From: Chlamydiales bacterium
Lineage (GTDB): Bacteria; Chlamydiota; Chlamydiia; Chlamydiales; SM23-39
Direction: 5' to 3'
Length of the DNA: 64,000 nucleotides
Assembly: GCA_028278035.1 (NCBI GenBank)
Contig: JANQFC010000065.1
Coordinates: 1,558-65,557 of the forward strand
This document shows positions 236 through 13,673 of this stretch, one piece after another (the first letter of the stretch is position 1; each line of letters starts with the position of its first letter). Position numbers and translations under genes: made by a program. The notes under the pieces are model-generated. The model saw only the letters and a program-made list of their open reading frames with translations, made no database searches and was not told where the DNA came from.

Positions 236-3200
236 TTAAGTTATTTTTGTTAAAGATATAATAGTTTTCTCGGAATTGATATCAATATCAATTCCATCAG
301 TTATTTTCTCAAATATAACATCAACTGCTAAAATTTCATTATCTATATAATTTTTATGTTCTAAATAACTTGTTTTTATTAAATCAGTCGTATCAAAAAC
401 AATTTTAATTCTATCAGTCACTTCAAATCCACTTTCTTTCCGCATCAAATTAATTTTGTTTACAATTTCTCTTGCAATTCCTTCTTTAATCAAACTATCG
501 CTCAATTCTGTTTCTAATGCTACTGCAATTTCAGGATCTCTGCCTGCAGCAACTCCCTCTTTTACTCTTCTTTCTATTACAACATCATCAGAAGTCAGTT
601 TTATAGTTTCTTTATCAATTTCAATATTTACAGGCTTATTATTTAAAATAGCATCAATTTGCTCTTTATTAAATCCAGCAATCACTTTTTGAGCTAAAGG
701 AAGTTTTTTACCAATTTTCTTGCCCAATACCCTAAAATTAGGTTTCGCAGATATTGTAATAAATCTGGACTCATCTTTTAGTAAAACAACCTCCCTAACA
801 TTTAACTCTTCTGCTATCAATTTATTAGATTTTTCTAAATACGATAATATTTTGAGATCTGCTTCTATATAAGCTTTAGATAAAGGCTGCCTCACCTTTA
901 TTTTATATTCTTTTCTAAGAGCATGACCAATACTTACAGTTCTTTGTACATAATCCATCTCATTTTCTAATTCCTCATCTCTCATATTCTTATCATAAGA
1001 TGGAAAATCACATAAATGAACAGAGGCTTCCATGTCATCTGTCTTTAATTCCTGATATATAGACTCACTAATAAACGGAACAAAAGGAGATATTATTTTA
1101 GTTAGCGTTAGCAATACTTGATATAGTGTACTAAAAGCATCTTTCCTATCCTGCGTTTCCTCATCTGACCAAAACCGAGACCTCGATCTTCTAATATACC
1201 AATTTGTAAGCTGATTGATAAAATCTACAATAGGATCCACTGCTTTTGCCAAGTCATATATATCTAAAGCTTTTTCTACTTCTTTAATAAGTTTATCTAC
1301 CAAAGATAATATCCATCTATCGATCTCACACTTGGGTTTTTCAAGAGTGGACGGCTTCCAATTATAAATTTTTGCATAAGTAGATAAAAAGACATAAGAG
1401 TTCCAAAATGGAAGTAATATTTGTCTAAATACTAATGAGACTCCTTTTTCAGAAAAACAAAGGTCCTGTCCTTTTACAGCAGGACTATGGATCATATACA
1501 TCCTGATAGCATCTGCTCCAAATTTAGAAATAACAATTTCCGGTTCCGGATAATTTTTCAGTCTCTTGCTCATTTTAGTACCGTCTTCAGCAAGCAGTAT
1601 TCCATTTACAACAACATTTTTAAAAGCAGGCTCATCAAAAATAGCTGCTGAAATCACAGTCAAAGTATAAAACCATCCCCTTGTCTGATCCAAAGCTTCT
1701 GCAATAAAATCAGCAGGAAAAGATTTTTCGGTTTTTTCCTTATTTTCAAATGGATAATGATTCTGAGCATATGGCATAGAACCCGATTCAAACCAGCAGT
1801 CAAAAACCTCTGTTACCCTGGTATAAGTTTCTCCATCATGCTCAAATGACAGATCATCTACAAACTGTCTATGTAAATTGTTTACTTTTTTCCCTGTCTT
1901 CTTCTCTAAATCTTCTAATGATCCAATTACAACAATATTGTTATTCTTATCTTTCCAGATAGGAATCGGTGTTCCCCAGTATCTATTTCTGCTAATAGCC
2001 CAATCCCTAGCACTTTCCAACCATTTGCCAAATCTCCCTTCTTTTAAATGCTCAGGCACCCAGTGTATTTTTTTATTGGCTGCAATAATTTTATCCTTGA
2101 TTTTTTCAACGGCAATAAACCAGGTTTTGACGGCTTTGTAAATTAATGGAGTATCCGATCTCCAACAAAATGGATATCTATGCCTAATAGTAGCTTGATA
2201 AAAAAGTTTTTTTTCATCTTTTAATCTTCTGATAATTAATTTATCTGAATCTTTAACAAGTTTACCCGCATATTCAGGAACCTCATTAGTAAATCGTCCA
2301 AAATCGTCTACCGGACAAATAACTTCAATACCGGCTTCTTTACAAGCAAAAAAATCTACTTCCCCAAAAGCAGGGGCTGTATGAACTATCCCTGTTCCAT
2401 CTTCTGTTGTCACAAAATCATCTACTAACACTCTAAAAGCATCTTCATTTTTAAAATAATCGAATAAAGGCTCATATCTTAAATTTTTTAATTCATTACC
2501 TTTGAAGGTCTCTAAAATTTCATATCCTTCATCTTCTTTAAAATAATTAGCAAGTCTTGCTTTTGCTATAATATAAATATCATTGCTCTTATGAGTTTTA
2601 ACTTTTACGTAATCAATATCGGGCCCTACTGTCAAAGCTAAATTGGATATTAGAGTCCATGGTGTGGTTGTCCAAGCAAGAAAATAAGTATTATCCTCAT
2701 TTTTTAATTTAAATTTTACAACAACGGAAGGATCATCAACATCTTGATAATTCAAGTTAGCTTCAAAATTGGAAATCGGCGTTCCCAGTTGGTAAGAAAA
2801 CGGCATTACCTTAAAACCTTCATATACCAGCCCCAAATCATACATCTGTTTGAATACCCACCAAACAGATTCCATAAAAGTAATATCCATTGTTCTATAA
2901 GTATGGGAAAAATCTACCCATCTTCCCATACGAGTTACGGTTTTTTCCCATTCTTTCGTATATCTCAAAACAATGCCTTCACATTCTTCATTAAATTTGG
3001 CTATGCCGAATTTATGAACAAATTCTGCTCCACACAACTCTTTCCCTTTTTCAATTTCATTTTCAACAGGAAGGCCGTGACAGTCCCATCCAAATCTTCT
3101 AGGGACATGAAATCCTTTCATGGTCTTATATCTAGCTACCACATCTTTAATAGCACTAACTAATAAATGTCCATAATGAGGAAGGCCTGTAGCAAATGGA

Positions 3201-3340
3201 GGCCCGTCGTAAAAAGAAAATAAAGGACTGTCCTTTCTATTTTCTACAGACTTTTCAAAAGTATTGTTTTTCTCCCATAATTTTAAAATTTTTTCTTCTC
3301 TTTTAGAAAAATCTTTTTCCTTATCTACTTCAAACATCAC
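236..3340 (-). CDS. ileS: isoleucyl-tRNA synthetase, type 2 (eukaryote-like)
   Basis: 1034 aa. HIGH motif (PHYGHLL), KMSKS motif (KMSKRLKNYP), and an editing-domain region (TTTPWTL). Confidence 0.97.
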   Translation of the reverse strand: MMFEVDKEKDFSKREEKILKLWEKNNTFEKSVENRKDSPLFSFYDGPPFATGLPHYGHLLVSAIKDVVARYKTMKGFHVPRRFGWDCHGLPVENEIEKGKELCGAEFVHKFGIAKFNEECEGIVLRYTKEWEKTVTRMGRWVDFSHTYRTMDITFMESVWWVFKQMYDLGLVYEGFKVMPFSYQLGTPISNFEANLNYQDVDDPSVVVKFKLKNEDNTYFLAWTTTPWTLISNLALTVGPDIDYVKVKTHKSNDIYIIAKARLANYFKEDEGYEILETFKGNELKNLRYEPLFDYFKNEDAFRVLVDDFVTTEDGTGIVHTAPAFGEVDFFACKEAGIEVICPVDDFGRFTNEVPEYAGKLVKDSDKLIIRRLKDEKKLFYQATIRHRYPFCWRSDTPLIYKAVKTWFIAVEKIKDKIIAANKKIHWVPEHLKEGRFGKWLESARDWAISRNRYWGTPIPIWKDKNNNIVVIGSLEDLEKKTGKKVNNLHRQFVDDLSFEHDGETYTRVTEVFDCWFESGSMPYAQNHYPFENKEKTEKSFPADFIAEALDQTRGWFYTLTVISAAIFDEPAFKNVVVNGILLAEDGTKMSKRLKNYPEPEIVISKFGADAIRMYMIHSPAVKGQDLCFSEKGVSLVFRQILLPFWNSYVFLSTYAKIYNWKPSTLEKPKCEIDRWILSLVDKLIKEVEKALDIYDLAKAVDPIVDFINQLTNWYIRRSRSRFWSDEETQDRKDAFSTLYQVLLTLTKIISPFVPFISESIYQELKTDDMEASVHLCDFPSYDKNMRDEELENEMDYVQRTVSIGHALRKEYKIKVRQPLSKAYIEADLKILSYLEKSNKLIAEELNVREVVLLKDESRFITISAKPNFRVLGKKIGKKLPLAQKVIAGFNKEQIDAILNNKPVNIEIDKETIKLTSDDVVIERRVKEGVAAGRDPEIAVALETELSDSLIKEGIAREIVNKINLMRKESGFEVTDRIKIVFDTTDLIKTSYLEHKNYIDNEILAVDVIFEKITDGIDIDINSEKTIISLTKIT

Positions 3341-3459: not shown

Positions 3460-3829
3460 GGGGGTGCTCAGGTTTCGACTTATAGGATAAGTAATTATGG
3501 CATGCAGAGGTTTATCGGTTGGCCTCTTAAAAAGCCGATAACAATATAAAAGGCGAAGATAATACTTTAGCTTTGGCCGCTTAAGACCTAACAGTCTTGG
3601 TAGTCTGGTAATCTAAAACACGGACCGAGAGGTTTAGAATTACTATCATTTATCTTGGTATGACTTCTACAGAGTTTGCTATCACTTTTTAGTTGTCGAG
3701 AATTAAAGATTGCAAATCGATTCATAGCGGGGAGCCTTCCGGCAGAATCGATCACATTAGGAGGCTCTAAGCATGTAGTCATCATTATGTATTTTTATAA
3801 GGACGAGAGTTCGATTCTCTCCACCTCCA
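3460..3829 (+). ncRNA. ssrA: tmRNA (transfer-messenger RNA)
   Basis: The 5' GGGGGTG (3460-3466) pairs with the 3' CACCTCC (3822-3828), including the G3:U alanine identity pair. T-arm is GAGAG-TTCGATT-CTCTC (3805-3821), with discriminator A at 3829. The internal tag frame GGC GAA GAT AAT ACT TTA GCT TTG GCC GCT TAA (3552-3584) ends in ...LALAA-stop. Confidence 0.9.
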
Positions 3830-3839
3830 TTCGCTCTTA

Positions 3840-4184
3840 TTACTTCATTACATTAGATTCTTCTAATAGCTTTTTGACTCTAGGAATTCTTTGGGCAGGA
3901 TTCACTTTTACTCCTCGAATATTATAAGCAAAAACAAAGATATCTTCATTTTTTTCTAACCATCCAACAAACCATCCAATTTGCATGTTTGCATCATGTC
4001 CAAATCCTGTCTTTCCAAACAATTTATAGCCTGTAGATAATTCATCAACAAACAAAAGGGATTTTGTCATTTGAATAGCATTACTTGAAATGGAAATTTC
4101 TTGTCGAATCTGAGATGCATTCAATAATCTTTGAATAAAATTTTGACCAACTAAAAATTCTGAATATCTCCTTTTTTTATATAG
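3840..4184 (-). pseudogene. class D (OXA-like) beta-lactamase / penicillin-binding-domain C-terminal fragment
   Basis: Only the C-terminal ~95-115 aa are present, with the KTG box (FGKTGFG) and the WFVGW motif typical of class D enzymes. There is no N-terminal S-x-x-K part. The frame closes just beyond repeat R0. The ORF-track start is a TTG. Confidence 0.6.
4153..4177 (+). repeat. R0, degenerate copy of the ssrA-3'-like element
   Basis: AAAAATTCTGAATATCTCCTTTTTT compared with R2 AAAGTTCTGAATGCGTCTCCTTTTA. Confidence 0.45.
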
Positions 4185-4328
4185 CTAAAAATCTAATTAT
4201 TAATCATTTACAAAAAACTCAAGCTTTAATAGATCATTAAAATATCATATATCCCGGAATATAATTGACAGAAACTCTTTTTTCCAAGAAAATAGAGTCT
4301 AAGGAAACAATATATAGGAATTTGTTTT

Positions 4329-5513
4329 ATGCAATTAATCCATCGATCATTAAATAAAAAATTAGAATCCATTTTAAAAAGAGGAAAAAGTGTTTTATTG
4401 CTCGGTCCTCGTCAAACAGGAAAGACAACTTTAATCAATCAATATAAAGCAGACCTTGAAATCACTCTTTTGATTTCAAAGGTGCGTCGTCAATATGAAG
4501 CAGACCCAGATCAACTTATCCGAGAAGTCCAAGCTTTAAAGCTCGCTAATCATAGAACTCCTCTTATAATTATTGATGAAGTTCAGAAAGTACCCGCTCT
4601 GATGGATGGAATCCAATATCTAATTGATAAAAAATTAGGACAATTTATTCTAACCGGATCTTCAGCCAGAAAATTAAAACATAATAAAAACATCAATCTG
4701 CTCCCTGGACGAGTTATCCAACTTCGTCTCGATCCACTCTCATTAGAAGAACTAAAACCAATACCTGCTATTGAAAATTTTTTACTATATGGATCTCTTC
4801 CTGCTATTTTCCTTGAATCTGATGTATCTATTCGCGAAGAAGAACTCGATTCCTACGTAGACTTATACCTTGAAGATGAAATTAGAGCAGAGGCTCTTGT
4901 ACGAGATATTGGTGCTTTTGAAAACTTTCTTCGACTTGCTTCTATTGAATCGGGCAATATTGTTAACTTTGACAAAATCTCTCAGGATATAGGTGTTGCC
5001 AGAACAACAATCGCGGCATATTATCAAATTTTAGAAGATTGCCTGATCGCAGAACGTATAGAACCCTATACAACAAGTAAAACACGTAAAAAATTAATAA
5101 AATCTCCAAAATATTTATTTTTTGATTTAGGCTTACGCCGTCTTGCAGCTAAGGAACAAACAAGCTTACCTCAAAAATATTTGGGAAATCTTTTTGAACA
5201 ATTTGTAGGGTTAGAATTGATTCGATGGTCACGTTTACAAAATTCAAAAATTAGCGTACATTTTTGGAGAGATCCTTCAGGTCCAGAAGTTGATTGGGTA
5301 ATACGCCGTAATAATGAATTACTTCCTATTGAGATAAAATGGACAGATACACCTTCTTTTAGAGACACAAAGCATCTTGAATTATTTTTAAATGAGTATC
5401 CAAATGCAAAGAAAGGTTATGTTGTGTGTCAAATATCTCACAATCAAGTTTTTTCAAATAAAATAGAAGCTATATCCTGGAAAGATTTAATTAAAAAGCT
5501 ACAAGATTGGTAG
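4329..5513 (+). CDS. AAA+ ATPase of the COG1373 type (AAA_14 + DUF4143-like)
   Basis: P-loop GPRQTGKTT and Walker B IIIDEVQ. The length and C-terminal pattern (WRDPSGPEVDWV...PIEIKW, a PD-(D/E)xK-like tail) are typical of this family. Confidence 0.75.
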   Translation: MQLIHRSLNKKLESILKRGKSVLLLGPRQTGKTTLINQYKADLEITLLISKVRRQYEADPDQLIREVQALKLANHRTPLIIIDEVQKVPALMDGIQYLIDKKLGQFILTGSSARKLKHNKNINLLPGRVIQLRLDPLSLEELKPIPAIENFLLYGSLPAIFLESDVSIREEELDSYVDLYLEDEIRAEALVRDIGAFENFLRLASIESGNIVNFDKISQDIGVARTTIAAYYQILEDCLIAERIEPYTTSKTRKKLIKSPKYLFFDLGLRRLAAKEQTSLPQKYLGNLFEQFVGLELIRWSRLQNSKISVHFWRDPSGPEVDWVIRRNNELLPIEIKWTDTPSFRDTKHLELFLNEYPNAKKGYVVCQISHNQVFSNKIEAISWKDLIKKLQDW

Positions 5514-5556
5514 AAAGATTTTCTGCGATTTTTTGCATTGAAACTCCAAATTTTAT

Positions 5557-5592
5557 CCAATCAAAAGTTCTGAATGCATCCAACCTCCTCCA
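5557..5592 (+). repeat. R1, ssrA-3'-like element
   Basis: CCAATCAAAAGTTCTGAATGCATCCAACCTCCTCCA. Confidence 0.75.
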
Positions 5593-5797
5593 AACTTATA
5601 ACTTCACACGAAATATTAATGAACCTATCCATAGAATAAGCAAATAGATAATATAGGGCCCAACCCTTTGCTGGGGGGAAAAAGCGTGAAAGCCATCTAA
5701 AATGTTTCGTATACCACTTGTTTCCAAACCATACGACTAGATTACATCCAATACTATCTATCAAAAGAAGGTAAAAAATAATTTTTTCTATAAGCAT
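5561..5797 (-). CDS. small hydrophobic protein (78 aa from the ATG at 5797)
   Basis: AAAGGAG lies 7 nt upstream of the ATG at 5797. One or two hydrophobic segments. The last 11 codons and the stop are encoded by the reverse complement of R1. Confidence 0.4.
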   Translation of the reverse strand: MLIEKIIFYLLLIDSIGCNLVVWFGNKWYTKHFRWLSRFFPPAKGWALYYLFAYSMDRFINISCEVISLEEVGCIQNF

Positions 5798-5928
5798 ATA
5801 TAGCTCCTTTTTACTATAAAAACTTTTTTTTATCATTCTTGCATTTTAAATAAAATTTCTTTTTTTGCTATTTTTTAATAACTCTGATATTTGACAAAGC
5901 AAAATCTATTATCAAATATTTTCCGTTT

Positions 5929-5958
5929 AAAGTTCTGAATGCGTCTCCTTTTACCTCA
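5929..5958 (+). repeat. R2, ssrA-3'-like element (right half diverged)
   Basis: AAAGTTCTGAATGCGTCTCCTTTTACCTCA. Confidence 0.65.
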
Positions 5959-6032
5959 TTAAATCTTATATTACCTTTTATATGTCAATGACTTATATAT
6001 ATCAAAATTATTAATTTGTAATTTATTATATA

Positions 6033-6060
6033 AACCTATAATGTAGGTTATATAACCTAC
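6033..6060. promoter_or_regulatory. operator-like palindromes upstream of the wHTH gene
   Basis: Perfect 18-bp palindrome GTAGGTTATATAACCTAC (6043-6060), plus an extra AACCTA half-site (6033-6038). It ends 12 nt before the ATG at 6073. Confidence 0.5.
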
Positions 6061-6072
6061 AAAAGAGGTTTT

Positions 6073-6402
6073 ATGCTAGAAGCAATTTTTGGTGGAAAAA
6101 ATATTGAAAAAATCCTCTTTTACCTGTTAATAAATAAAACATGTTATGCTACCCAACTTTCTATTGAATTTGATGAAGCATTATCTCCATTTCAAAAAGC
6201 ATTCGACAGACTAGAAGCAGGCGGAATAATTGTAAGTTTTTTAGAAGGTAAAACTCGTATTTATCAATTTAATCCCAGATATCCTTTTCTTAAAGAATTA
6301 AAAAAATTATTATTAAAAGCATTCAATTTCTTGCCTAATGAATTTAAAAATAATTATCTTAAAGTAAGAAAAAGACCAAGAAGAAGAGGAAAACCATTAT
6401 GA
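6073..6402 (+). CDS. small winged-helix DNA-binding protein (antitoxin/regulator-like)
   Basis: 109 aa with a wHTH-like core (ILFYLL...YATQLSIEF...FQKAFDRLEAGGIIVS..GKTRIYQFN) and a basic tail. It overlaps the next ORF by 4 nt (ATGA). Confidence 0.5.
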   Translation: MLEAIFGGKNIEKILFYLLINKTCYATQLSIEFDEALSPFQKAFDRLEAGGIIVSFLEGKTRIYQFNPRYPFLKELKKLLLKAFNFLPNEFKNNYLKVRKRPRRRGKPL

Positions 6403-6947
6403 GTAAATATAATTTCAAAAATATTACTCTTGAAAACCTTGCAGCCATAATTTCAAAGCACTTGTTTAAACATAATATTGAAAATATTTTAGTTGGAGGA
6501 GCTTGTGTTTCAATTTATTCACAAAATCGATATCAATCTTATGATTTAGACTATGTAACATATGAAGATATGAAAAAAATAGCACTTGCATTAAATGAAC
6601 TTGGCTTTCAAAAAAAAGGCCGCCATTTCGTACATAAAGATTGTCAATATATTATAGACTTTATAGCACCTCCAGTTGCTATCGGCAATGAACCAATTGA
6701 AAAATATGAATATCATAAGACATCACTTGGAACTATAAAAATGTTAACTCCCACTGATAGCGTTAAAGATAGATTAGCGAGTTTTTATCACTGGAATGAT
6801 CAACAAGGATTGGATCAAGCAATAAGTATCTATCAAGAAATTCCCGATAAAATTGATATAAAAGAAATTAAAAGATGGTCTAAAAAAGAAGGTCAATCGA
6901 AAAAATATGAAATATTTTTAAAATACTTAAAAGAGAATCTCAATTAA
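6399..6947 (+). CDS. minimal nucleotidyltransferase-fold protein (AbiEii/MNT-like)
   Basis: hGG-x13-DLD signature (VGGACVSIYSQNRYQSYDLDYV). Translationally coupled to the upstream wHTH gene. The stop TAA forms the first bases of R3. Confidence 0.45.
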   Translation: MSKYNFKNITLENLAAIISKHLFKHNIENILVGGACVSIYSQNRYQSYDLDYVTYEDMKKIALALNELGFQKKGRHFVHKDCQYIIDFIAPPVAIGNEPIEKYEYHKTSLGTIKMLTPTDSVKDRLASFYHWNDQQGLDQAISIYQEIPDKIDIKEIKRWSKKEGQSKKYEIFLKYLKENLN

Positions 6948-6977
6948 AAGTTCTGAATGCGTCCAACCACCTCCATT
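6946..6977 (+). repeat. R3, ssrA-3'-like element
   Basis: AAAAGTTCTGAATGCGTCCAACCACCTCCATT. The CCACCTCCATT part is identical to ssrA 3821-3831. Confidence 0.85.
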
Positions 6978-7137
6978 AGGACTGGATTGTTAAAACTTAT
7001 TTTTTTATAAAAGGTTTGTACATATACGAAAATCTACTAAAAAATTTATCTCAAAAAATTGAAAATTACTTCTCCGAGATTGAAGCAGGATACAACTTTG
7101 ATTTAGGGTCAGAATTTGAAATGGCACTGTGCAAAAT
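6946..7137 (+). repeat. 192-bp direct repeat, copy A (R3 + promoter region + first ~39 codons of a DUF6602-like gene, start codon lost)
   Basis: Aligns base-for-base with 7546-7737 (offset exactly 600 bp), with about 7 mismatches. Confidence 0.9.
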
Positions 7138-7480
7138 AACTTTGAGCAAAAGCAATGGCTTCCTTGCGCGGATCTCCATTTTGAGCAATTAGATAACATG
7201 CATATCGGGTTAACATAAAATCTTCAATTTCCCGTTGAGCTCCACTACCTAAGGCTACCATTTTCGTAACGCCACGAAAATGGTCATTCGGATCACATCC
7301 AGTTGTTTTACAAGATTCTATTGCTTTTTGAATAGATGTTATAAAATTTTCCCATCGAACATATCCAAGCGGTTCTTGCAAATCTCTAGCAAACCAAAAT
7401 TCAATTTTTTCCTCGAAAACTGTCTGTGCCAATTTATCAAAATGGCTTTGCAATTTACCAATAACCTCTTTATTATACAT
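7109..7480 (-). pseudogene. dinD: DNA-damage-inducible protein D (DinD)-like gene, N-terminal ~117 codons only
   Basis: LTRYACYLIAQNGDPRKEAIAFAQSYFA closely parallels E. coli DinD [28 protein letters not shown]. Homology stops at the 7137/7138 junction with repeat copy A, after which the frame runs 6 unrelated codons to a stop. Full-length DinD is more than twice this size. Confidence 0.7.
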
Positions 7481-7545
7481 AACACATTCCTAGTGCAAAT
7501 ATTTTTTTTTAAAATAATAGCTAAAATTGATAAAGAGCTCCAGTC

Positions 7546-7577
7546 AAAAGTTCTGAATGCGTCCAACCACCTCCATT
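7546..7577 (+). repeat. R4, ssrA-3'-like element
   Basis: Identical to R3. It is flanked by the short inverted repeat CCAGTC (7540-7545) / GACTGG (7580-7585). Confidence 0.85.
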
Positions 7578-7737
7578 AGGACTGGATTGTTAAAACTTAT
7601 TTTTTTATAAAAGGCTTGTGCATGTACAAAAATCTACTAAAAAATTTATCTCAAAAAATTGAAAATTACTTCTCCGAGATTGAAGCAAGATATAACTTTG
7701 ATTTAGGATCAGAATTTGAAATGGCACTGTGCAAAAT
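7546..7737 (+). repeat. 192-bp direct repeat, copy B (R4 + 5' end of the intact DUF6602-like gene)
   Basis: See copy A. Confidence 0.9.
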
Positions 7738-8413
7738 TCTTCAAGATCTCTTACCGACAAAATTCGGAATTTGTAGAGGATTTATAGTAGATAAAGAAGG
7801 CAATGAAGCAGGAGATGATATAATCATATATGGTCGTTTAAGGTTCCCTTCTATACGGATGTTAGGACAAGATAATTTCGCTCAAAAAGAAAGAATACCC
7901 TTCGAAGCAGTATATTGTTATATCGAAGCAAAGCACAACCTTGAGCTAGATAAAGTTAAAGAAAGTACATTAAATAAAGCACTAAACCAAATCCAAAAAA
8001 TTAAATCTCTGAAGCGCTCAGAGCGTAGTTTATCCCAAATAACAGAAGCATGCAATCTTGGAAAAAATTTTGAATTAAAAGCTCCGAATGAGTCGTGGGC
8101 TAATAAATGGAATCCTTTATATACGGGTATTATATCGAGAAGAACATCTCTGAAGTCTGATGGGGAAAATTCTAAAAAAGGATTATTAGATCCAAATGCA
8201 ACTTACCAACTCTTGCATCGCAATATGTCTATAGAATGTATACCTGATCTATTAGTAGCTGGAAATGGAGTTCTCGGCTTACCTACATTTAATGACCAAA
8301 AACACCTAATGCCCTTTAATGAACCAAATCACTGCTCAGGATTTTGCATATTTAAGACGAAGTATAATGCACTAGCAGTAGGCCTTTGTCAGTTGCTTTG
8401 GGCCCCTAGATAG
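7622..8413 (+). CDS. PD-(D/E)xK nuclease-fold protein, DUF6602-like
   Basis: GDDIIIYG ... EAVYCYIEAKH gives a D...E-x-K arrangement. The N-terminal LGSEFEMALCKILQDLLP pattern is typical of DUF6602 (recalled from memory, not searched). The ATG at 7622 is preferred over the TTG at 7616. Confidence 0.55.
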   Translation: MYKNLLKNLSQKIENYFSEIEARYNFDLGSEFEMALCKILQDLLPTKFGICRGFIVDKEGNEAGDDIIIYGRLRFPSIRMLGQDNFAQKERIPFEAVYCYIEAKHNLELDKVKESTLNKALNQIQKIKSLKRSERSLSQITEACNLGKNFELKAPNESWANKWNPLYTGIISRRTSLKSDGENSKKGLLDPNATYQLLHRNMSIECIPDLLVAGNGVLGLPTFNDQKHLMPFNEPNHCSGFCIFKTKYNALAVGLCQLLWAPR

Positions 8414-8514
8414 AATTCAATTAGGGACTATGCCTTGGGAAGAGATTATTGTTCCAAATTTGGATCAAGCACCTTTAACATCTTCATAATCTTTTTAAGA
8501 GAATCAATATCAAC

Positions 8515-8540
8515 ATTTCTAAATGCGTCTCTCACCTTCT
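8515..8540 (+). repeat. R5, degenerate ssrA-3'-like element
   Basis: ATTTCTAAATGCGTCTCTCACCTTCT compared with R7 AGTTCTGAATGCGTCTCTCCACCTCT. Confidence 0.55.
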
Positions 8541-8629
8541 TTGATCTTCAAGAAACCAAAATAATTTACAAAAATTGACTTACTGATTATTATAAAATTA
8601 TAATCCCGTATGGTGACCCCATACGAAAG

Positions 8630-8660
8630 CCACGAGCTCCGGCTCGTGGTTACTTTTTTT
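8630..8660 (+). terminator. GC-rich hairpin + T-run (rho-independent terminator-like), preceded by a second hairpin at 8607-8625
   Basis: CCACGAGC-TCCG-GCTCGTGG followed by TTACTTTTTTT. The upstream hairpin is CGTATGG-TGACC-CCATACG. Confidence 0.5.
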
Positions 8661-8671
8661 ATGAGAATTAA

Positions 8672-9316
8672 ATGCAACGTAATCGAGTTATAAGTTTTAT
8701 TGATGGCTTCAATTTATATCATGCGATTAATAATCTTAACCAATCTCATTTAAAATGGTTAAATTTACACTCTCTTTCAAAAGCTTTCACAAAACCTAAA
8801 TCTGAAATACTATCCAAAGTATTTTATTTTTCAGCATGGGTAAATCATAGAAATAAAACTTCTCAATATAGACAAAAATGTTATATCAATGCTTTAAAAA
8901 TCATGGGCATAAATACTGTCCTTGGTCATTTTAAAAGAAAAAATAGAAAATGTCCAAAATGTTTATTCAAGTGGATAGGAAACGAAGAAAAAGAAACAGA
9001 TGTAAATATTGCTTTACATTTATTAGATCTTGCTTATCAAAATGCTTTTGATCGTGCTATTATCATTTCTAATGATTCTGATCTTGCCCCTGCAATTCGA
9101 TTAATAAAAAAACGCTTTCCTAATAAAATTATAACAACTATAGCTCCTCCAAATTGTTATCATAGTAATGAATTAATTCAAGCGTCTTCAAATAAATCTA
9201 AAATCAGAATAAGACATTTAGAAAGATGCTTATTACCAGAAGTTGTAACTGATTCATCAAAAATAATTACTGTAACTAAACCTAAAGAATATGCTTTAGC
9301 TTTAAGTAAAAATTGA
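8672..9316 (+). CDS. NYN (LabA/DUF88-like PIN-fold) domain protein with a CPKC zinc-ribbon insert
   Basis: N-terminal FIDGFNLYH, an ETDVNIA motif, and IISNDSDLAPAI are the conserved acidic motifs of NYN ribonuclease-like domains. Confidence 0.65.
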   Translation: MQRNRVISFIDGFNLYHAINNLNQSHLKWLNLHSLSKAFTKPKSEILSKVFYFSAWVNHRNKTSQYRQKCYINALKIMGINTVLGHFKRKNRKCPKCLFKWIGNEEKETDVNIALHLLDLAYQNAFDRAIIISNDSDLAPAIRLIKKRFPNKIITTIAPPNCYHSNELIQASSNKSKIRIRHLERCLLPEVVTDSSKIITVTKPKEYALALSKN

Positions 9317-9338
9317 TCTTATTCCTTGATATAAAAGC

Positions 9339-9376
9339 CCAATCAAAAGTTCTGAACGCGTCCAACCACCTCCAAT
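9339..9376 (+). repeat. R6, ssrA-3'-like element
   Basis: CCAATCAAAAGTTCTGAACGCGTCCAACCACCTCCAAT. Confidence 0.85.
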
Positions 9377-9635
9377 CCGCTATGAAAATCGTTAATCCTC
9401 TTGCGGTTTTAATCTCAAGATTTGCAAATGGGACAAAAAAGAGACACTAATTAGCTAGAATTATTTTCAGAGCTGTTTCATGCATTATTTGATAAGCCTA
9501 TTTTTGGAGCATTTGATGATTCTGCTCCTAATCGTTGAGGTGCTTAAAGCAATAAAAGAATGGGAATCTTATATCTTTATAGATTCTAAAGATAATTTTA
9601 TATAAAATTTAAGACCTTTTAAAGGAAAAGCTATT

Positions 9636-11381
9636 ATGTCGGTTCCAGATCTTTCTTTTTATACTAATCCAAGCACATTAAAGCTCCTGCGTACACGAAA
9701 AATTTTGTTAGATGAAGAAACCCCTTGTCAGCTTTTTACTCGAGTTGTTCAGGCTCTTCTAAACGTTGAAGACTATTTTCAGACGCCGGGGTTTGAAAAA
9801 GAGGTTTTAAAAAAACATGTGTTTCAAACTATAGAACAGCGACACATCGTTTTTGGATCTCCTTTATTGACCAATGCTGGTCGGGAACATATGCCTATAA
9901 GTTCATGTACGGTAATACCGGTTGATTTACAAAAATCGTTGGAGGAAATTAAAAAAACGATGCTGCCTTATTATCAGGCAGAAATGGGCAGTGGGTTTAA
10001 TTTGAGCGAGATTGCCGATCCTGTAAAAACACTGCGTGAGCTGAATCATATCTTGTTAGAAATTGAAGGAACCGTGAAAAGGCCTCCGTGCGGAATGGCG
10101 CTGCTTATGGTTGATCATCCACAGGTGTTGAATTTTATTAATATGAAACGAGAAGATGATTTTGCTTCTTGGAGATTCAATCTTTCTGTCGGTGTAACGA
10201 ATGTTTTTATGGAAGCAGTTCAACATGATGAAGAATGGACCTTTAATGATCAGACTAAAGTCCCAGCTAAAATTATATTCGAAGCAATTGCAGCTGGAGC
10301 CCATCATTGCGGTGAGCCAGGATTGATTTTTTTTGATCACTTTCAAGAAGATAATCCTCTTCCTTCATTGGTATATAAAAGTGTGGCTCCTTGTGCTGAA
10401 ATAGCTATGGCGCCTGGAGAAGTATGCCAGTTTAGTTATATTAATGTTGCTGCAATGGTTCAAGATTTACCAGATAGTTCTGCATCTTTTGATTTTAAGA
10501 CTCTTCAACATACTGCCGCTCTTCTGACGCGGTTACTAGATGATGGTGTGGAAATTTCCATTGCTAATGCCGTGTCTGATGCGGCTATTATTGCAGACAA
10601 AAGAAGAATCTCAATCGGTATTTGCGGTTTTGCAGATCTATTGATTAAGCTGAAAATGCAGTATGGTTCTGACGAGTCTTTGATTCTTTTGAAAGAAATT
10701 CTGTCAGTTGTTCAATATTACTCAAAAAAGGCCTCCGTTGAATTAGCAGCATCAAGAGGCCCTTTTCCGGCTTTTGGCCAAAGCCGTTATTGTGATTATG
10801 GCTGGGTATCTCGTTTTCAAGCATATCCTACTGAGCAAGTGTCTTCTGAGATGTGGCAAACGCTTGCTTCTAGAATAACACAGATTGGCATTCGCAATGC
10901 CGGCACTACAGCTCTGCCTCCGACTGGCGTCAGTTCCCGGATAATCCATACCTCGCAAAGCATCGAACCTTTATTTTCTCTTTTGGAGGACTCTTTTTGT
11001 CTGCGCAGAGATTTGCAAACAGAATTAATCGACATTTTTCAATCAGCTAATGTAGATGCAGAAAGGCAAACAGCAATTTTTAAGGAGATTACTGACAAAG
11101 GAACAATTCCAGAAGAGATGTTGGAAATTCCCGATCAGATAAAAAAAACATTTCTTACAGCTTCTCAAATTGCGTGGGAAAGCCACTTGCGTATATTGGG
11201 AGAGGCAAAAAACTATCTGGATGAAAGTGTTTCCAAAACAGTGCTGTTGCCAAAGATAACTCCAGCGACGACTGTTAAAAAATGTTTTCTTCAAGCATAT
11301 CGAATTAAATTAAAAGGAATAACGATATTTAGAAATGGCTGTCTTCAAGAAAAAGATAAATCGATTTTTGCTGTAGATTAG
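9636..11381 (+). CDS. divergent, short class II (adenosylcobalamin-type) ribonucleotide reductase-like protein
   Basis: RNR landmarks are present: SPLLTNAG, ISSC, APCAEIAM..EVCQFSYINV (equivalent to NPCGE...CNLGSINL), LPPTGVSS, SKTVLLP, and KGITIFRNGC at the C-terminus. The protein is only 581 aa. The Asn of NPCGE is Ala and the GGG-x-G..S-x-LRP loop is altered. Confidence 0.65.
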   Translation: MSVPDLSFYTNPSTLKLLRTRKILLDEETPCQLFTRVVQALLNVEDYFQTPGFEKEVLKKHVFQTIEQRHIVFGSPLLTNAGREHMPISSCTVIPVDLQKSLEEIKKTMLPYYQAEMGSGFNLSEIADPVKTLRELNHILLEIEGTVKRPPCGMALLMVDHPQVLNFINMKREDDFASWRFNLSVGVTNVFMEAVQHDEEWTFNDQTKVPAKIIFEAIAAGAHHCGEPGLIFFDHFQEDNPLPSLVYKSVAPCAEIAMAPGEVCQFSYINVAAMVQDLPDSSASFDFKTLQHTAALLTRLLDDGVEISIANAVSDAAIIADKRRISIGICGFADLLIKLKMQYGSDESLILLKEILSVVQYYSKKASVELAASRGPFPAFGQSRYCDYGWVSRFQAYPTEQVSSEMWQTLASRITQIGIRNAGTTALPPTGVSSRIIHTSQSIEPLFSLLEDSFCLRRDLQTELIDIFQSANVDAERQTAIFKEITDKGTIPEEMLEIPDQIKKTFLTASQIAWESHLRILGEAKNYLDESVSKTVLLPKITPATTVKKCFLQAYRIKLKGITIFRNGCLQEKDKSIFAVD

Positions 11382-11382
11382 T

Positions 11383-11420
11383 CCAATCACAAGTTCTGAA
11401 TGCGTCTCTCCACCTCTATT
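11383..11420 (+). repeat. R7, ssrA-3'-like element
   Basis: CCAATCACAAGTTCTGAATGCGTCTCTCCACCTCTATT. The TCTCTCCACCTC part is identical to ssrA 3816-3827. Confidence 0.85.
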
Positions 11421-11519
11421 TCATCTGAAGCTTTCTCAGTTTTTTATTGATAAAATATCAAAATGCAACTTATAATTTTAACTTTTATAGTAATTTATTT
11501 TTGGGAATTTATATTCATC

Positions 11520-11984
11520 ATGCTTGCTGATTTAAATACAAATAAAAATACAGTTTTACAACATCCGCGTATTGGAGTAGCATGCGTCATTCAAAAAAAT
11601 GAAAAAATTCTTCTCGGAAAAAGAAAGGAAGCTCATGGCATAGGTTACTGGGGTATGCCCGGAGGACATCTAGAATTTAGAGAAAAAGTAGAAAATTGCG
11701 CAAAACGTGAGTTATTAGAAGAAACTGGTCTAAAAACACTTTCCTTACACGTAGGACCTTGGGTAGAAAACATAATCGAGCCTAAAAAAACACATTATAT
11801 CACTATCTTTGTATTCATAGACAGCTTTGTTGGAAAACCTGCTTTGCTTGAACCTAATAAATGTGAAGGCTGGAAGTGGTTTAATTGGAAAAATTTACCT
11901 CAGCCTCTTTATCCATCCATTCCCTCAGCAATAAACAAACATCCTGATCTATTCTATCAAGTAGCCTCTGTTGAAAAGTTCTGA
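11520..11984 (+). CDS. NUDIX hydrolase
   Basis: Nudix box GGHLEFREKVENCAKRELLEETGL. The ATG at 11520 (MLADLN...) is preferred over 11463. The last four codons and the TGA lie inside R8. Confidence 0.8.
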   Translation: MLADLNTNKNTVLQHPRIGVACVIQKNEKILLGKRKEAHGIGYWGMPGGHLEFREKVENCAKRELLEETGLKTLSLHVGPWVENIIEPKKTHYITIFVFIDSFVGKPALLEPNKCEGWKWFNWKNLPQPLYPSIPSAINKHPDLFYQVASVEKF

Positions 11985-12005
11985 ACGCGTCTCTTCACCT
12001 CCATT
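11974..12005 (+). repeat. R8, last ssrA-3'-like element
   Basis: AAAAGTTCTGAACGCGTCTCTTCACCTCCATT. Confidence 0.8.
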
Positions 12006-12164
12006 GCGCTTTAAGCTCCTATTATTTTCTGGATTAACTTGCTTATATGAAAAAGAATAAAAACCTTCTTTGAACATCAAAAATTCTTAACTACTCGCCT
12101 TCTAAAACTCGAAACTCACGTTATTTGTAAGATGTAGGGTCGCATCAATACAATTTTTTACAAC

Positions 12165-12734
12165 TTAAACAGCTTTGCCCATTTCGTATGCCTCGTTCAT
12201 TTTATCTGGGTGCTTTCGAATTTCTCCAGCTTCGTGAACACCTAAACCACAAATAACACCAGCCAATTTTGCACCTTCCGGACATTTGACCCAAACACCG
12301 CTAAAATGCTTTATCCAATCTTCAATTTTTATTATCACTTTGTCAGTAAATTCGTTGCTTTTTCCTGATGAAGCTGTTAACAAATACACATCTAGAAATC
12401 TATGTGTTTGTTCAAGGTTCAACTTCCATGGGAATAGTGGATACGTACGATCTAACAATGTTTGCATTTGTCCACTTACTCCGCCAAAATAAACAGGAGC
12501 AGCAAAAACAATTACTTCTGCTTTGTGTATTTTTTTCACGATTTCATCTGCATCATCTCGAAGAACACATCTTTGTGTGTTTTGACAAATATCACAATCT
12601 ACACAAAAGTTAATTTTCTTATCTCGCAGAAAAATTTTTTCTACTTCATGTCCACTACTTATAGCCCCTCTAATAAACTCATCAGCGAGTATGTCTGTAT
12701 TGGAATTATTGCGCAAACTTGTCGATATTACCAA
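12165..12734 (-). CDS. flavodoxin-like FMN reductase / iron-sulfur flavoprotein family
   Basis: ISTSLRNNSNT (the SPR..GNT-type N-terminus), the compact Cys motif CVDCDICQNTQRC, and the APVYFGG motif. The ORF-track start is a TTG. An out-of-frame ATG sits behind an A8 run (see findings). Confidence 0.65.
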   Translation of the reverse strand: MVISTSLRNNSNTDILADEFIRGAISSGHEVEKIFLRDKKINFCVDCDICQNTQRCVLRDDADEIVKKIHKAEVIVFAAPVYFGGVSGQMQTLLDRTYPLFPWKLNLEQTHRFLDVYLLTASSGKSNEFTDKVIIKIEDWIKHFSGVWVKCPEGAKLAGVICGLGVHEAGEIRKHPDKMNEAYEMGKAV

Positions 12735-12935
12735 AATTTTTTTTACTCATAATGCTTTCTACTAGTTATTGATTTAGAAGCTGCCTATAAATAGCATGCT
12801 TCATTTGCAAATTCAAGACTTTCTTTCCAGAGTAACCTCATATCTTTCTTTTTATCAATCGTAGAAATAATTTAATTGGTTTAATAGAAAACAATAAAAT
12901 TCAATATAGAAAATATAAACAAATACCCGTCTTTT

Positions 12936-13673
12936 TTACTGAAAGCCAATATTATCTATAAAGTTTTTTAATTTACCATCGGGTAAAAGTTTATTATTTC
13001 CTATAGTATCATAATGCTCGGTCATACAGCCATTTTCTAAAAAAATCATTCTATCAAACTTTGTTTTAACAAAATTCATATCCTGACTGGAAATAATTAA
13101 CCCAATGTTTTTATCTCTTAGTTTTGTAAGAATATTAATCAATATTTGAGTATTTTCCGGATCTAAAGCCGAAGTAGGCTCATCTAATAAGAGAAAACAA
13201 GGGTTAAGCATAATCGCTCTGGCAATTGCAGCCCTCTGTTTTTGTCCTCCAGACAATTCATGAGGATAAGAATAAGCGATTTGCTCTATATCAAATACAG
13301 AAAGGATATTTTCCACTTTTAATTTTATTTCTTTTTGATTTGGAAATAAATTCAAAAGGGGCTGTACACAATTTTTATAAACATTCATGTGCGGAAACAA
13401 ATTATAGGATTGCATTACAAGCCCTACAAGCTGGCAGCGTTGTTTGGCAGAAAAAGATTTCAATGATTTATGAGCATACGTAACTTCTCCCTGATATTTT
13501 TTCTCAAGCTGCGCAATACAACGTAATAAAGAAGTTTTGCCAGAGCCGCTTTTGCCCAGCAAAAAAGTTATTTTTTTTGCTGGAAAATCGCAAGAGATAT
13601 TGTTTAAAATGAGGCGTCGTTTCTTTTGAGAACACCTTGATAAATAAAGATTTTTAACGACTAACATAACCAT
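12936..13673 (-). CDS. polar amino-acid ABC transporter, ATP-binding protein
   Basis: Walker A GKSGSGKTS, signature LSGGQKQR, Walker B LLLDEPTSALD. Confidence 0.9.
   Translation of the reverse strand: MVMLVVKNLYLSRCSQKKRRLILNNISCDFPAKKITFLLGKSGSGKTSLLRCIAQLEKKYQGEVTYAHKSLKSFSAKQRCQLVGLVMQSYNLFPHMNVYKNCVQPLLNLFPNQKEIKLKVENILSVFDIEQIAYSYPHELSGGQKQRAAIARAIMLNPCFLLLDEPTSALDPENTQILINILTKLRDKNIGLIISSQDMNFVKTKFDRMIFLENGCMTEHYDTIGNNKLLPDGKLKNFIDNIGFQ

Follow-up and report, generated by a model that had tools for sequence, protein, structure and literature searches.

The 64,000-nt stretch of the Chlamydiales contig JANQFC010000065.1 that we analysed (the window, in what follows) carries, behind its tmRNA gene ssrA, an array of short gene modules separated by co-oriented copies of a 38-nt repeat. 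This repeat is probably the attR-type site of integrative elements with an ssrA-specific large serine recombinase (LSR), and the array probably consists of cassettes without an LSR, mobilisable in cis, that visiting elements left behind. Each repeat would then join an element-side half, P-left (TCCAATCAAAAGTTCTGAATGCGTC), to the terminal 12-14 nt of ssrA. The case for this reading is made by a repeat family restricted to the ssrA locus, an LSR gene that overlaps both forms of the site, modules with precise ends and no LSR, and the reassortment of those modules between genomes.

The ssrA locus and its repeats

The window's ssrA gene lies next to ileS, an order repeated in at least 17 related loci, and tmRNA is the sole family matched in an Rfam scan of 3.3-13 kb. 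The two genes and the repeats, R1 to R9, are placed as follows.

236..3340, minus strand: ileS, left neighbour of ssrA, a 1034-aa open reading frame (ORF); context, outside the array
3460-3829, plus strand: ssrA, the tmRNA gene (ARAGORN; Rfam RF00023 at 3460-3832, E 7e-56)
3816..3829, plus strand: block common to ssrA and the repeats, TCTCTCCACCTCCA (alignment)
4146..4171, plus strand: R1, decayed (CCAACTAAAAATTCTGAAT..ATCTCC), read from the sequence; its boundary position matches homologous modules in L015 and L040
5555..5592, plus strand: R2, CAAC variant, 3 mismatches (nhmmer 26.6 bits)
5920..5957, plus strand: R3, P-left intact, core decayed (nhmmer profile)
6938..6975, plus strand: R4 (nhmmer 40.0 bits)
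7538..7575, plus strand: R5 (nhmmer 42.9 bits)
8504..8541, plus strand: R6, decayed (weak nhmmer match at 8517-8533; its position fits a module end in L053)
9337..9374, plus strand: R7 (nhmmer 40.2 bits)
11381..11418, plus strand: R8, TCTC variant (nhmmer 43.1 bits)
11966..12003, plus strand: R9 (nhmmer 37.9 bits)

A first-pass annotation of the window had described nine direct repeats 3' of ssrA. The pattern scan, an nhmmer profile made from 140 copies and the boundaries of homologous modules bear this out, with seven solid and two degenerate copies of a 38-nt motif, all on the plus strand; R1 (about 4146-4171) is too decayed to be detected by the profile. With up to three mismatches allowed, AAGTTCTGAAYGCGTC has 11 matches in the 64 kb against 0.63 expected, a number reached in none of 100 shuffles. 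Nine of the 11 fall within 5.5-12 kb, every one on the plus strand, and the match at 8079, inside an ORF, is at chance level. No repeat lies outside 4.1-12.0 kb within the window, and neither the pattern nor the profile search found a copy past 12005.

The ssrA 3' end is an attB-type target made up of B-left, ..GAGAGTTCGATTC.., and the core TCTCCACCTCCA (ssrA 3818-3829), and the same 3' end occurs in 25 other loci. The right half of the repeat is TCTCCACCTCCA followed by A or T, which the alignment confirms to be identical to the ssrA 3' end, as had been noticed at first, and the sequence to the right of each window repeat is indeed unlike that of any other copy.

Decay is greatest in the ssrA-proximal R1-R3 (4146-5957), and the distal R7-R9 (9337-12003) are best kept. 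Between GCGTC and CACCTCCA stand four bases that come in two variants, TCTC, shared with ssrA, and CAAC. One array can contain both, and homologous modules bear different variants in different genomes (window repeats; L040, L067, L078, L113). A linkage of the variant to the left or to the right module, by which the crossover could have been placed, was rejected, as the variant assorts with neither.

The repeat in other genomes

An exact scan with AAGTTCTGAAYGCGTCNNNNCACCTC over 185,579 genomes, one per species, returned 117 loci, nearly all in metagenome-assembled genomes (MAGs) of Chlamydiota from several orders and families. These loci (L001-L117) are arbitrary 8-kb pieces around the matches. 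Arrays with 2-6 copies are common among them, and 25 of the 117 pieces include ssrA, which in every case has the strand of the repeats and lies upstream of them, at an offset of 216 nt to 6.5 kb. P-left is conserved in at least 140 copies from these loci, directly upstream of the core, and is not ssrA sequence. Conservation extends about 26 nt to the left of the ssrA-identical block and ends exactly at the mature tmRNA 3' end; the next base is A or T in 94% of copies. In the complete genomes CP073762.1 and CAWIWQ010000001.1, the repeat copies are confined to one region each.

Because of this confinement to one locus and the co-orientation with ssrA, the repeat is not a dispersed element and is tied to the ssrA locus across the phylum. 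The least credible of the alternatives that we considered is a generic repeat, such as a repetitive extragenic palindromic element, a terminator or a small RNA, clustering here by chance. Its best support would be that 61% of the copies in other lineages precede a terminator-like hairpin, but the repeat has no Rfam match and no structure of its own, its conservation stops at the tmRNA 3' end, and the search for scattered copies that the first-pass annotation had called for found a single region in the window and in each of the two complete genomes.

The hairpins are strong, lie within 50 nt of the repeat and often carry a T-run, against 8% in shuffled sequence (230 right flanks, L001-L117); modules may each supply ssrA with a terminator. 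Such a hairpin is absent from all right flanks of the window repeats. The repeat also occurs in records labelled Verrucomicrobia(e), Acidobacteria(ota) or as a 'Chlamydia trachomatis' MAG (L008, L010, L018, L030, L036, L052, L070, L094, L107). The four of these with ssrA or ileS in view (L018, L052, L094, L107) have a chlamydial-type ssrA 3' end and an ileS neighbour, so that the labels of these four are probably errors of binning or naming.

A large serine recombinase whose gene runs through the site

Clustering of the ORFs over the 117 loci brought out a recombinase (MKALLLARVSSKEQ...) on the strand opposite ssrA. A composite of the L046 and L112 proteins matches the Pfam families Resolvase (PF00239), Recombinase (PF07508) and Zn_ribbon_recom (PF13408), all above cut-offs. 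We were led to the end of this gene by an idea that failed: that a long gene on the minus strand has its 5' end in the repeat was rejected, the antisense frame W-R-W-R-D-A-F-R-T-F-D-W being open for only some 20-30 codons in most copies. Read antisense, the repeat is instead an alternative C-terminal tail of the LSR, ..WRWR-DAFRTFDW... The LSR ends in ..PTNWRWRESNSRP when it adjoins ssrA (L018, L005, L039, L045), which is what the ssrA 3' end encodes antisense, and in ..PTNWRWRDAFRTF.. when it comes after a repeat (L112, 6864-6915), which is what the repeat encodes antisense. The stretch of the LSR gene that precedes either tail is P-right, ATTGGTTGGATG, which reads HPTNW antisense. Since the 3' end of the LSR gene traverses the att site, the repeat can be read as the P-left arm of attP plus the shared core.

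A metagenome scan with the LSR protein gave 195 relatives. Among those 67-95% identical to the query, ten are antisense with a 3' end overlapping ssrA (including L121, L123, L124, L126, L127, L133, L134 and L140), and an LSR antisense at the att site is also seen in L018 and L046 (L046/L127). In L124, L127, L134 and L140 the repeat stands as attR 6-10 kb from the LSR, and the interval holds a primase-like gene, a conserved 172-aa gene, an SpoVG-like or AlbA_2-type gene and a small MerR-like helix-turn-helix gene. The L127 gene for the LSR (Ga0070741_10004104) runs from 6844 to 8334, and a tail of 27 codons can be read from its attR. The system is therefore not without an integrase, as had been supposed from the window; relatives carry the cognate LSR on 6-10 kb elements antisense to ssrA.

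Sister LSR lineages, at 45-73% identity, lie antisense at the 3' ends of other genes: tRNA-Asn (L149, L152, L156), tRNA-Arg (L168, L183), tRNA-Met (L131) and tRNA-Tyr (L144, L201). In free or tandem form they share this P-left, and their tail reads ..(D/E)FR(T/N)F... The tail arginine is encoded by AGA in some lineages and by CGC in others, which points to selection on the protein, so that the conservation of the tail goes beyond that of a DNA site. The family seems to take new targets among tRNA and tmRNA genes (tDNAs) by changing its core and P-right, and the T-loop RGTTC may be its common recognition element.

The LSR has two C-termini, one in the free and one in the integrated element, the free tail being DAFRTFDW.. 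or NDFRTF.. (L112 6864-6915; L127 8302-8334; L151, L147, L173). A swap of tails might conceivably act as a switch between integration and excision.

Neither a plasmid nor a phage origin of the LSR was retained. The sole close plasmid match is a degraded copy on Neochlamydia pS13, and the closest phage sequences are one IMG/VR relative at 35% identity and GenBank phages at 38% or less. The degraded copy (L201; NZ_AP017978.1, Neochlamydia sp. S13 pS13, 12001-13409; 65% identity) adjoins tRNA-Tyr, and the 231-kb record labelled as a plasmid also holds the housekeeping genes surE, queG, ttcA and mgtE.

With the LSR in hand, it is highly improbable that the array is an integron, a cluster of attC sites lacking an integron integrase (CALIN) or an array of tyrosine-recombinase islands (IntI, Xer or P4-type tDNA integrase). 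Small modules do pile up at one site here, and tDNA islands usually derive from tyrosine integrases (PMC4383910). Yet an LSR gene physically contains the repeat, and no tyrosine recombinase recurs beside the arrays in the 117 + 80 loci. Nor do the repeats fold as single strands: six copies gave -0.3 to -4.6 kcal/mol, with z-scores of +0.35 to +1.13, and the consensus has no GTTRRRY/RYYYAAC pair (R''/R' boxes) and no palindromy.

Half-site geometry

The alignment of sites proposed in the first-pass annotation places ssrA and the repeat against each other as follows.

ssrA: GAGAGTTC-----GATTCTCTCCACCTCCA
repeat: AAAAGTTCTGAATGCGTCTCTCCACCTCCA

The two share the core and are nearly identical over the inner 10-11 bp, and the RGTTC block is shifted by exactly 5 bp. 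From AGTTC to the 3' end there are 22 nt in the repeat and 17 nt in ssrA; in the tRNA-Asn lineage the distances are 25 and 20. For LI integrase, the motif of the zinc-ribbon domain lies at bp 16-24 of attP half-sites and at bp 11-19 of attB half-sites, a shift of 5 bp (PMC3783163). By this geometry, judged at the level of sequence only, ssrA would be the B-type and the repeat the P-type half-site of the same enzyme. The left half of the repeat had been taken for a diverged copy of the T-loop region. It is better described as a P-type half-site that encodes the LSR tail, and its resemblance to the T-arm comes from the displacement by 5 bp that serine integrases typically show between attP and attB.

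From the half-site geometry, together with the point at which the identity block of the tRNA-Asn lineage starts on its left side, the crossover is predicted to fall around the CC at 3824-3825, which is 4-5 nt short of the 3' end. A crossover there, to the right of the TCTC/CAAC bases, would put those bases in P-left, and they would never enter ssrA.

Two other descriptions of the site were dropped. An inverted repeat, TCCAATCAA / TTGGTTGGA, was considered as the attP arms, and the attP-like site of L112 and the tRNA-type attPs do not keep it. A Xer/dif-like site was rejected as well, the consensus being without dyad symmetry.

Modules, cargo and reassortment

A repeat stands at either end of 122 modules in the whole set of loci; these have a median length of 1.35 kb (range 205-7036 nt), shorter than the LSR gene alone, and the modules had rightly been called cassette-sized. 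The longest ORF is on the plus strand in 57 of the complete modules and on the minus strand in 57. The cargo includes RhuM (23 loci), Fic, AbiEi/AbiEii, APH, PIN-PhoH and a class D beta-lactamase-like gene fused to Cass2. In one such fusion (L070, 4197-5483), the class D beta-lactamase-like domain is joined to a Cass2 'integron-associated effector binding' domain.

The left ends of the modules are precise, starting directly after ..CCA in different genomes, and most modules have no remnant of a recombinase or of the element backbone. The canonical P-right begins 12 of the 230 unique right flanks, and traces of backbone genes are present in about 12 of the 117 loci. LSR pseudogenes occur in L005, L018, L032, L039, L045, L063, L080 and L107, and always retain the 3' end at the core.

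Within the window, the modules are the following.

3830..4145: module 1, truncated; C-terminal fragment of a class D beta-lactamase-like gene (3840-4124, minus strand; Pfam Transpeptidase, NCBIfam class D matches under cut-off); 94% identical to the start of an 810-nt module of L040 that itself lies 3' of a repeat
4172..5554, plus strand: module 2; AAA_14/DUF4143 ATPase (4329-5513), candidate defence gene PDC-S01; 82% identical to L067 5230-6579
5593..5919: module 3, small; 91-aa ORF (5561-5836, minus strand); 82% identical to L088
5958..6937, plus strand: module 4; two overlapping genes (6073-6402 and 6399-6947) of unknown function, without a Pfam match; homologues are repeat-bounded modules in L077, L113 and L100, at 65-75% identity
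6976..7537: module 5; 160-nt copy of the start of module 6 (6976-7137) and a truncated DinD/Bro-N gene (7109-7480, minus strand; Pfam Bro-N, NCBIfam DinD covering 115/288 positions); 85% identical to L040 1184-1627
7576..8503, plus strand: module 6; DUF6602 / PD-(D/E)xK NucC-like nuclease (7616-8413); the homologue in L053 is flanked by two repeats
8542..9336, plus strand: module 7; NYN-domain protein (8672-9316), candidate defence gene HEC-09
9375..11380, plus strand: module 8; B12-dependent (class II) ribonucleotide-reductase-like gene (9636-11381); no homologous module among the other loci
11419..11965, plus strand: module 9; NUDIX hydrolase (11463-11984), with its stop codon within R9
12004..12860: module 10; FMN reductase/flavodoxin-like gene (12165-12734, minus strand; Pfam FMN_red)

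The motif itself does stop at 12005, as first described, but the array runs one module on. The stretch 12004-12860 counts as a tenth module because it is 92.9% identical to L078 3523-4373, which has repeats on both sides there (it is also 91.5% identical to a sequence in L075). In the window it lacks the distal 160 nt or so and the distal repeat, and the next genes form an amino-acid ABC transporter operon.

All ten modules are flanked by att sites and carry no integration or transfer genes, which is one mark of cis-mobilisable elements (CIMEs). The early statement that the 64 kb holds no recombinase also stands: a tblastn search with the cognate LSR was empty, 20 window ORFs have no Pfam recombinase domain, and the remaining ORFs, judged by eye only, look like housekeeping genes. 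The window has no element backbone remnant either, and with the LSR missing it holds only the non-autonomous part of the system. The compositional check suggested at the outset gave a G+C content per module of 26-38% against 31% for the whole window. Module 8 is at the top of this range (38%); its ribonucleotide-reductase-like gene is the sole occupant of the cassette and scores below the NCBIfam equivalog cut-offs.

A comparison of related loci, as had also been proposed, revealed modules in different orders and with different neighbours between genomes. In L040 the Bro-N module is followed by the beta-lactamase module, while in the window the beta-lactamase module follows ssrA and Bro-N is followed by DUF6602. 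The FMN-reductase module comes after NUDIX in the window and after an unrelated module in L078, and eight further clusters of homologous modules have neither neighbour in common. When window modules are compared with a single MAG (binchicken_co129_128), they are 94%, 85% and 72% identical, a spread that suggests separate histories for the modules. Exact-protein look-ups for strain polymorphism returned only contigs of the same sample, SRR20820740, which break at the repeats.

The duplication at 6941-7137 / 7541-7737 (197 nt, 95% identity, start-to-start spacing 600 nt) comprises the repeat and the first 160 nt of the DUF6602 module, and flanks the 5'-truncated DinD/Bro-N module. This resembles the outcome expected if a circle [Bro-N'-repeat-160 nt] had been inserted from a diverged donor. 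A Logan assembly of the same organism is broken at this duplication. Another short unit, a 205-nt module whose ORFs are all below 80 aa, occurs twice in one MAG (L033 402-606 and L048 51-255, 99.5% identical), after ssrA in one contig and after a repeat in the other, with different right neighbours. The pair is either a tandem duplicate or the product of strain heterogeneity.

These data bear on the view that the modules are inert fossils, that is, full LSR elements reduced by deletion, with homologous recombination between the 38-bp repeats now doing the reshuffling and the recombinase no longer involved. We consider this unlikely. It would account for the internal or 5' deletions of the LSR pseudogenes in relatives (L005, L018, L039, L045), the decay of R1, R3 and R6, the independence of the TCTC/CAAC variant from both neighbours and perhaps the 600-bp duplication at 6941-7737, which could have come from homologous recombination. 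However, what the recognisable decay products retain is the LSR 3' end at the core, and about 95% of boundaries are without it; backbone remnants are rare; different genomes agree in placing module starts immediately after ..CCA; and the 72-94% spread of divergence against one genome argues for repeated independent arrival.

A proposed mechanism

The scars of site-specific integration at the ssrA 3' end that the first-pass annotation had proposed are supported by these findings, and the cassettes were most likely delivered and reshuffled by visiting LSR elements. An autonomous element of 6-10 kb would carry its LSR gene antisense to ssrA, with attP inside the 3' end of that gene. The free form would encode an LSR ending ..PTNWRWR-DAFRTFDW.. 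and the integrated form one ending ..PTNWRWR-ESNSRP, the antisense of ssrA. Each integration would restore ssrA and displace the earlier content downstream, behind a new repeat, and repeated integration at ssrA would thereby build a co-oriented array.

Cassettes would most likely travel by a hit-and-run route. An LSR element would integrate at ssrA (attP x attB). Aided by a directionality factor, for which the 70-86-aa MerR-like helix-turn-helix gene of L121, L126 and L134 is a candidate, it would then excise by way of the attR of a downstream cassette, carrying neighbouring cassettes along, and the element with its cassettes would integrate in a new host. Finally the element would exit alone by its own attR, leaving the cassettes joined precisely to ssrA. 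Every step would be a canonical serine-integrase reaction, and the route would explain the precise modules without an LSR, their reassortment, the retention of P-left and the many arrays free of a recombinase. It amounts to the accretion-mobilisation that is described for CIMEs (PMC5704250) and discussed for Dehalococcoides (PMC3146451).

Several points weigh against this reading. No LSR is present in the 64-kb window, and no excised circle or empty site was seen. A PDB single-sequence search with the LSR gave no match at E <= 0.001, so the family assignment rests on the Pfam domains. The decay gradient of the window repeats is opposite to that of simple accretion with the newest unit at ssrA and neutral decay. 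The independence of the TCTC/CAAC variant from both neighbouring modules also fits homologous recombination between repeats. Lastly, a single-cassette circle would bear an attR-like and not an attP-like site, which canonical serine integrases do not recombine with attB; since such a circle is unsuited to attB, the route by which the LSR-less cassettes obtained their precise left ends is one that we infer. The 7757-nt contig L115 was considered as an excised circle and dropped, having no terminal overlap.

The last of these points is also the main objection to a 'serine integron', in which single LSR-less cassettes would circularise and reinsert at ssrA one by one, using an LSR in trans that needs only P-left and the core. 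Such a system would suit the cassette-sized modules with their precise ends, the reshuffling at the level of the single module, the strong conservation of P-left in modules that no longer encode a recombinase, the 205-nt module found in two contexts in one MAG, and the evident integration of elements even where foreign sequence already follows ssrA. The circle of a cassette has a P/B' (attR-like) site, however, and the known serine integrases pair only attP with attB, or attL with attR when a recombination directionality factor is present (PMC3783163). No circular single-cassette contig was seen, and the cargo is randomly oriented (57 vs 57), unlike that of integron cassettes. On balance we find this improbable, in preference for delivery by visiting LSR elements.

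A broader proposal, which we put forward tentatively and with some doubt, is that the Chlamydiae have a phylum-wide serine-recombinase cassette system anchored on tmRNA, in which single-gene LSR-less cassettes with 38-bp sites are the chief unit of exchange and move by hit-and-run or in trans, and a swap between the tails DAFRTFDW.. and ESNSRP serves as a switch between integration and excision. If this is true, the system would be a functional analogue of integrons of independent origin, and a tool already at hand for integration at the conserved chlamydial ssrA.

Chlamydiae are obligate intracellular bacteria whose acquisition of genes is poorly understood, and the ssrA 3' end gives them one conserved entry point, used in Parachlamydiales, Simkaniaceae, Rhabdochlamydiaceae, Waddliaceae and Anoxychlamydiales. 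Defence-type genes predominate among the accessory genes stacked there (Fic, RhuM, AbiE, NucC-like nucleases, NYN, class D beta-lactamase-like). The analysis also reveals an LSR family that switches among tRNA and tmRNA targets while one half-site stays. It is more speculative to regard the 38-bp site and its recombinase as a candidate integration tool for chlamydial genetics.

Comparison with known systems

We found no description of such arrays in Chlamydiae in the full-text literature searched, which lacks most subscription journals. The array had first been compared to an integron-style series of cassettes, and was held to be closer to an integron than to tandem islands. As to function, the likeness holds: as in integrons and CALINs, co-oriented sites bound modules of one or two genes at one locus, many arrays have no recombinase nearby, and the cargo is rich in defence and toxin-type genes. 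The machinery differs. There is no IntI, a tyrosine recombinase, and a serine recombinase takes its place; the chlamydial site is a conserved 38-nt duplex sequence, whereas attC is palindromic and defined by structure; the array is headed by ssrA with ileS upstream and not by attI and the Pc promoter; and the cargo lacks the common orientation of integron cassettes. The architecture is rather that of ssrA islands in tandem, some of them mobilisable in cis, reduced to the size of single genes.

In staphylococci, the CcrAB and CcrC serine recombinases insert staphylococcal cassette chromosome (SCC) elements at the 3' end of rlmH/orfX, and composite tandem arrays include recombinase-less pseudo-SCC units between direct repeats. 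The chlamydial arrays resemble these in the LSR-type insertion at the 3' end of one essential gene and in the tandem units without a recombinase. In SCC, though, the target is protein-coding, the units are 3-60 kb, and attP is not known to lie within the recombinase gene.

An attP inside the integrase gene is known from the Myxococcus phage Mx8 (intP) and from Sulfolobus SSV1 (int), where integration alters or splits the integrase frame. There, as here, the free and integrated forms encode different proteins, but those enzymes are tyrosine recombinases, and the chlamydial LSR swaps only its last 10-30 codons.

CIMEs are known from the accretion and mobilisation of ICESt1/ICESt3 in Streptococcus thermophilus, as elements that keep their att sites, lack integration and transfer genes, stand in tandem with autonomous elements and can be excised together with them (PMC5704250). 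Like the chlamydial modules, they are tandem att-flanked units at the 3' end of a tDNA or other gene. They depend on tyrosine and not serine integrases, and they are defined as decayed integrative and conjugative or integrative and mobilisable elements, whereas most chlamydial modules have no backbone remnant. The tycheposons of Prochlorococcus likewise form tRNA/tmRNA islands by successive integration, with partial tDNA copies, decayed integrases and some LSRs and primases, and have tyrosine recombinases in 910 of 937 elements (bioRxiv 10.1101/2020.12.28.424599). No conserved element-side motif and no single-gene cassette arrays are described in that study, unlike the chlamydial system.

The closest known system is that of the ssrA islands of Dehalococcoides (McMurdie et al. 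2011, PMC3146451), in which tandem islands stand behind ssrA with a 20-bp ssrA repeat and an adjacent conserved 15-bp element motif. Their DsiB, a serine recombinase of about 540 aa, is encoded on the reverse strand and overlaps attL, and 15 islands, about half, have no integration module and are discussed as cis-mobilisable (PMC3146451). Tandem units behind ssrA, an element motif at the repeat, an antisense LSR overlapping ssrA/attL and recombinase-less members are thus common to both. The chlamydial arrays belong to another phylum and have another repeat and motif sequence. Insertion in Dehalococcoides is described as falling midway along the T-loop, whereas the chlamydial shared block is the last 12-14 nt, with a crossover predicted 4-5 nt short of the 3' end. 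Beside the chlamydial LSR there was no sign of a second small serine recombinase (DsiA), and the multi-gene islands of Dehalococcoides contrast with the mostly single-gene chlamydial modules (median 1.35 kb) and with a site that is conserved phylum-wide. The chlamydial array thus extends the known ssrA-specific LSR islands with cis-mobilisable members, a design known from Dehalococcoides, to a second phylum; what sets it apart is its phylum-wide occurrence and its reduction to the scale of single-gene cassettes.

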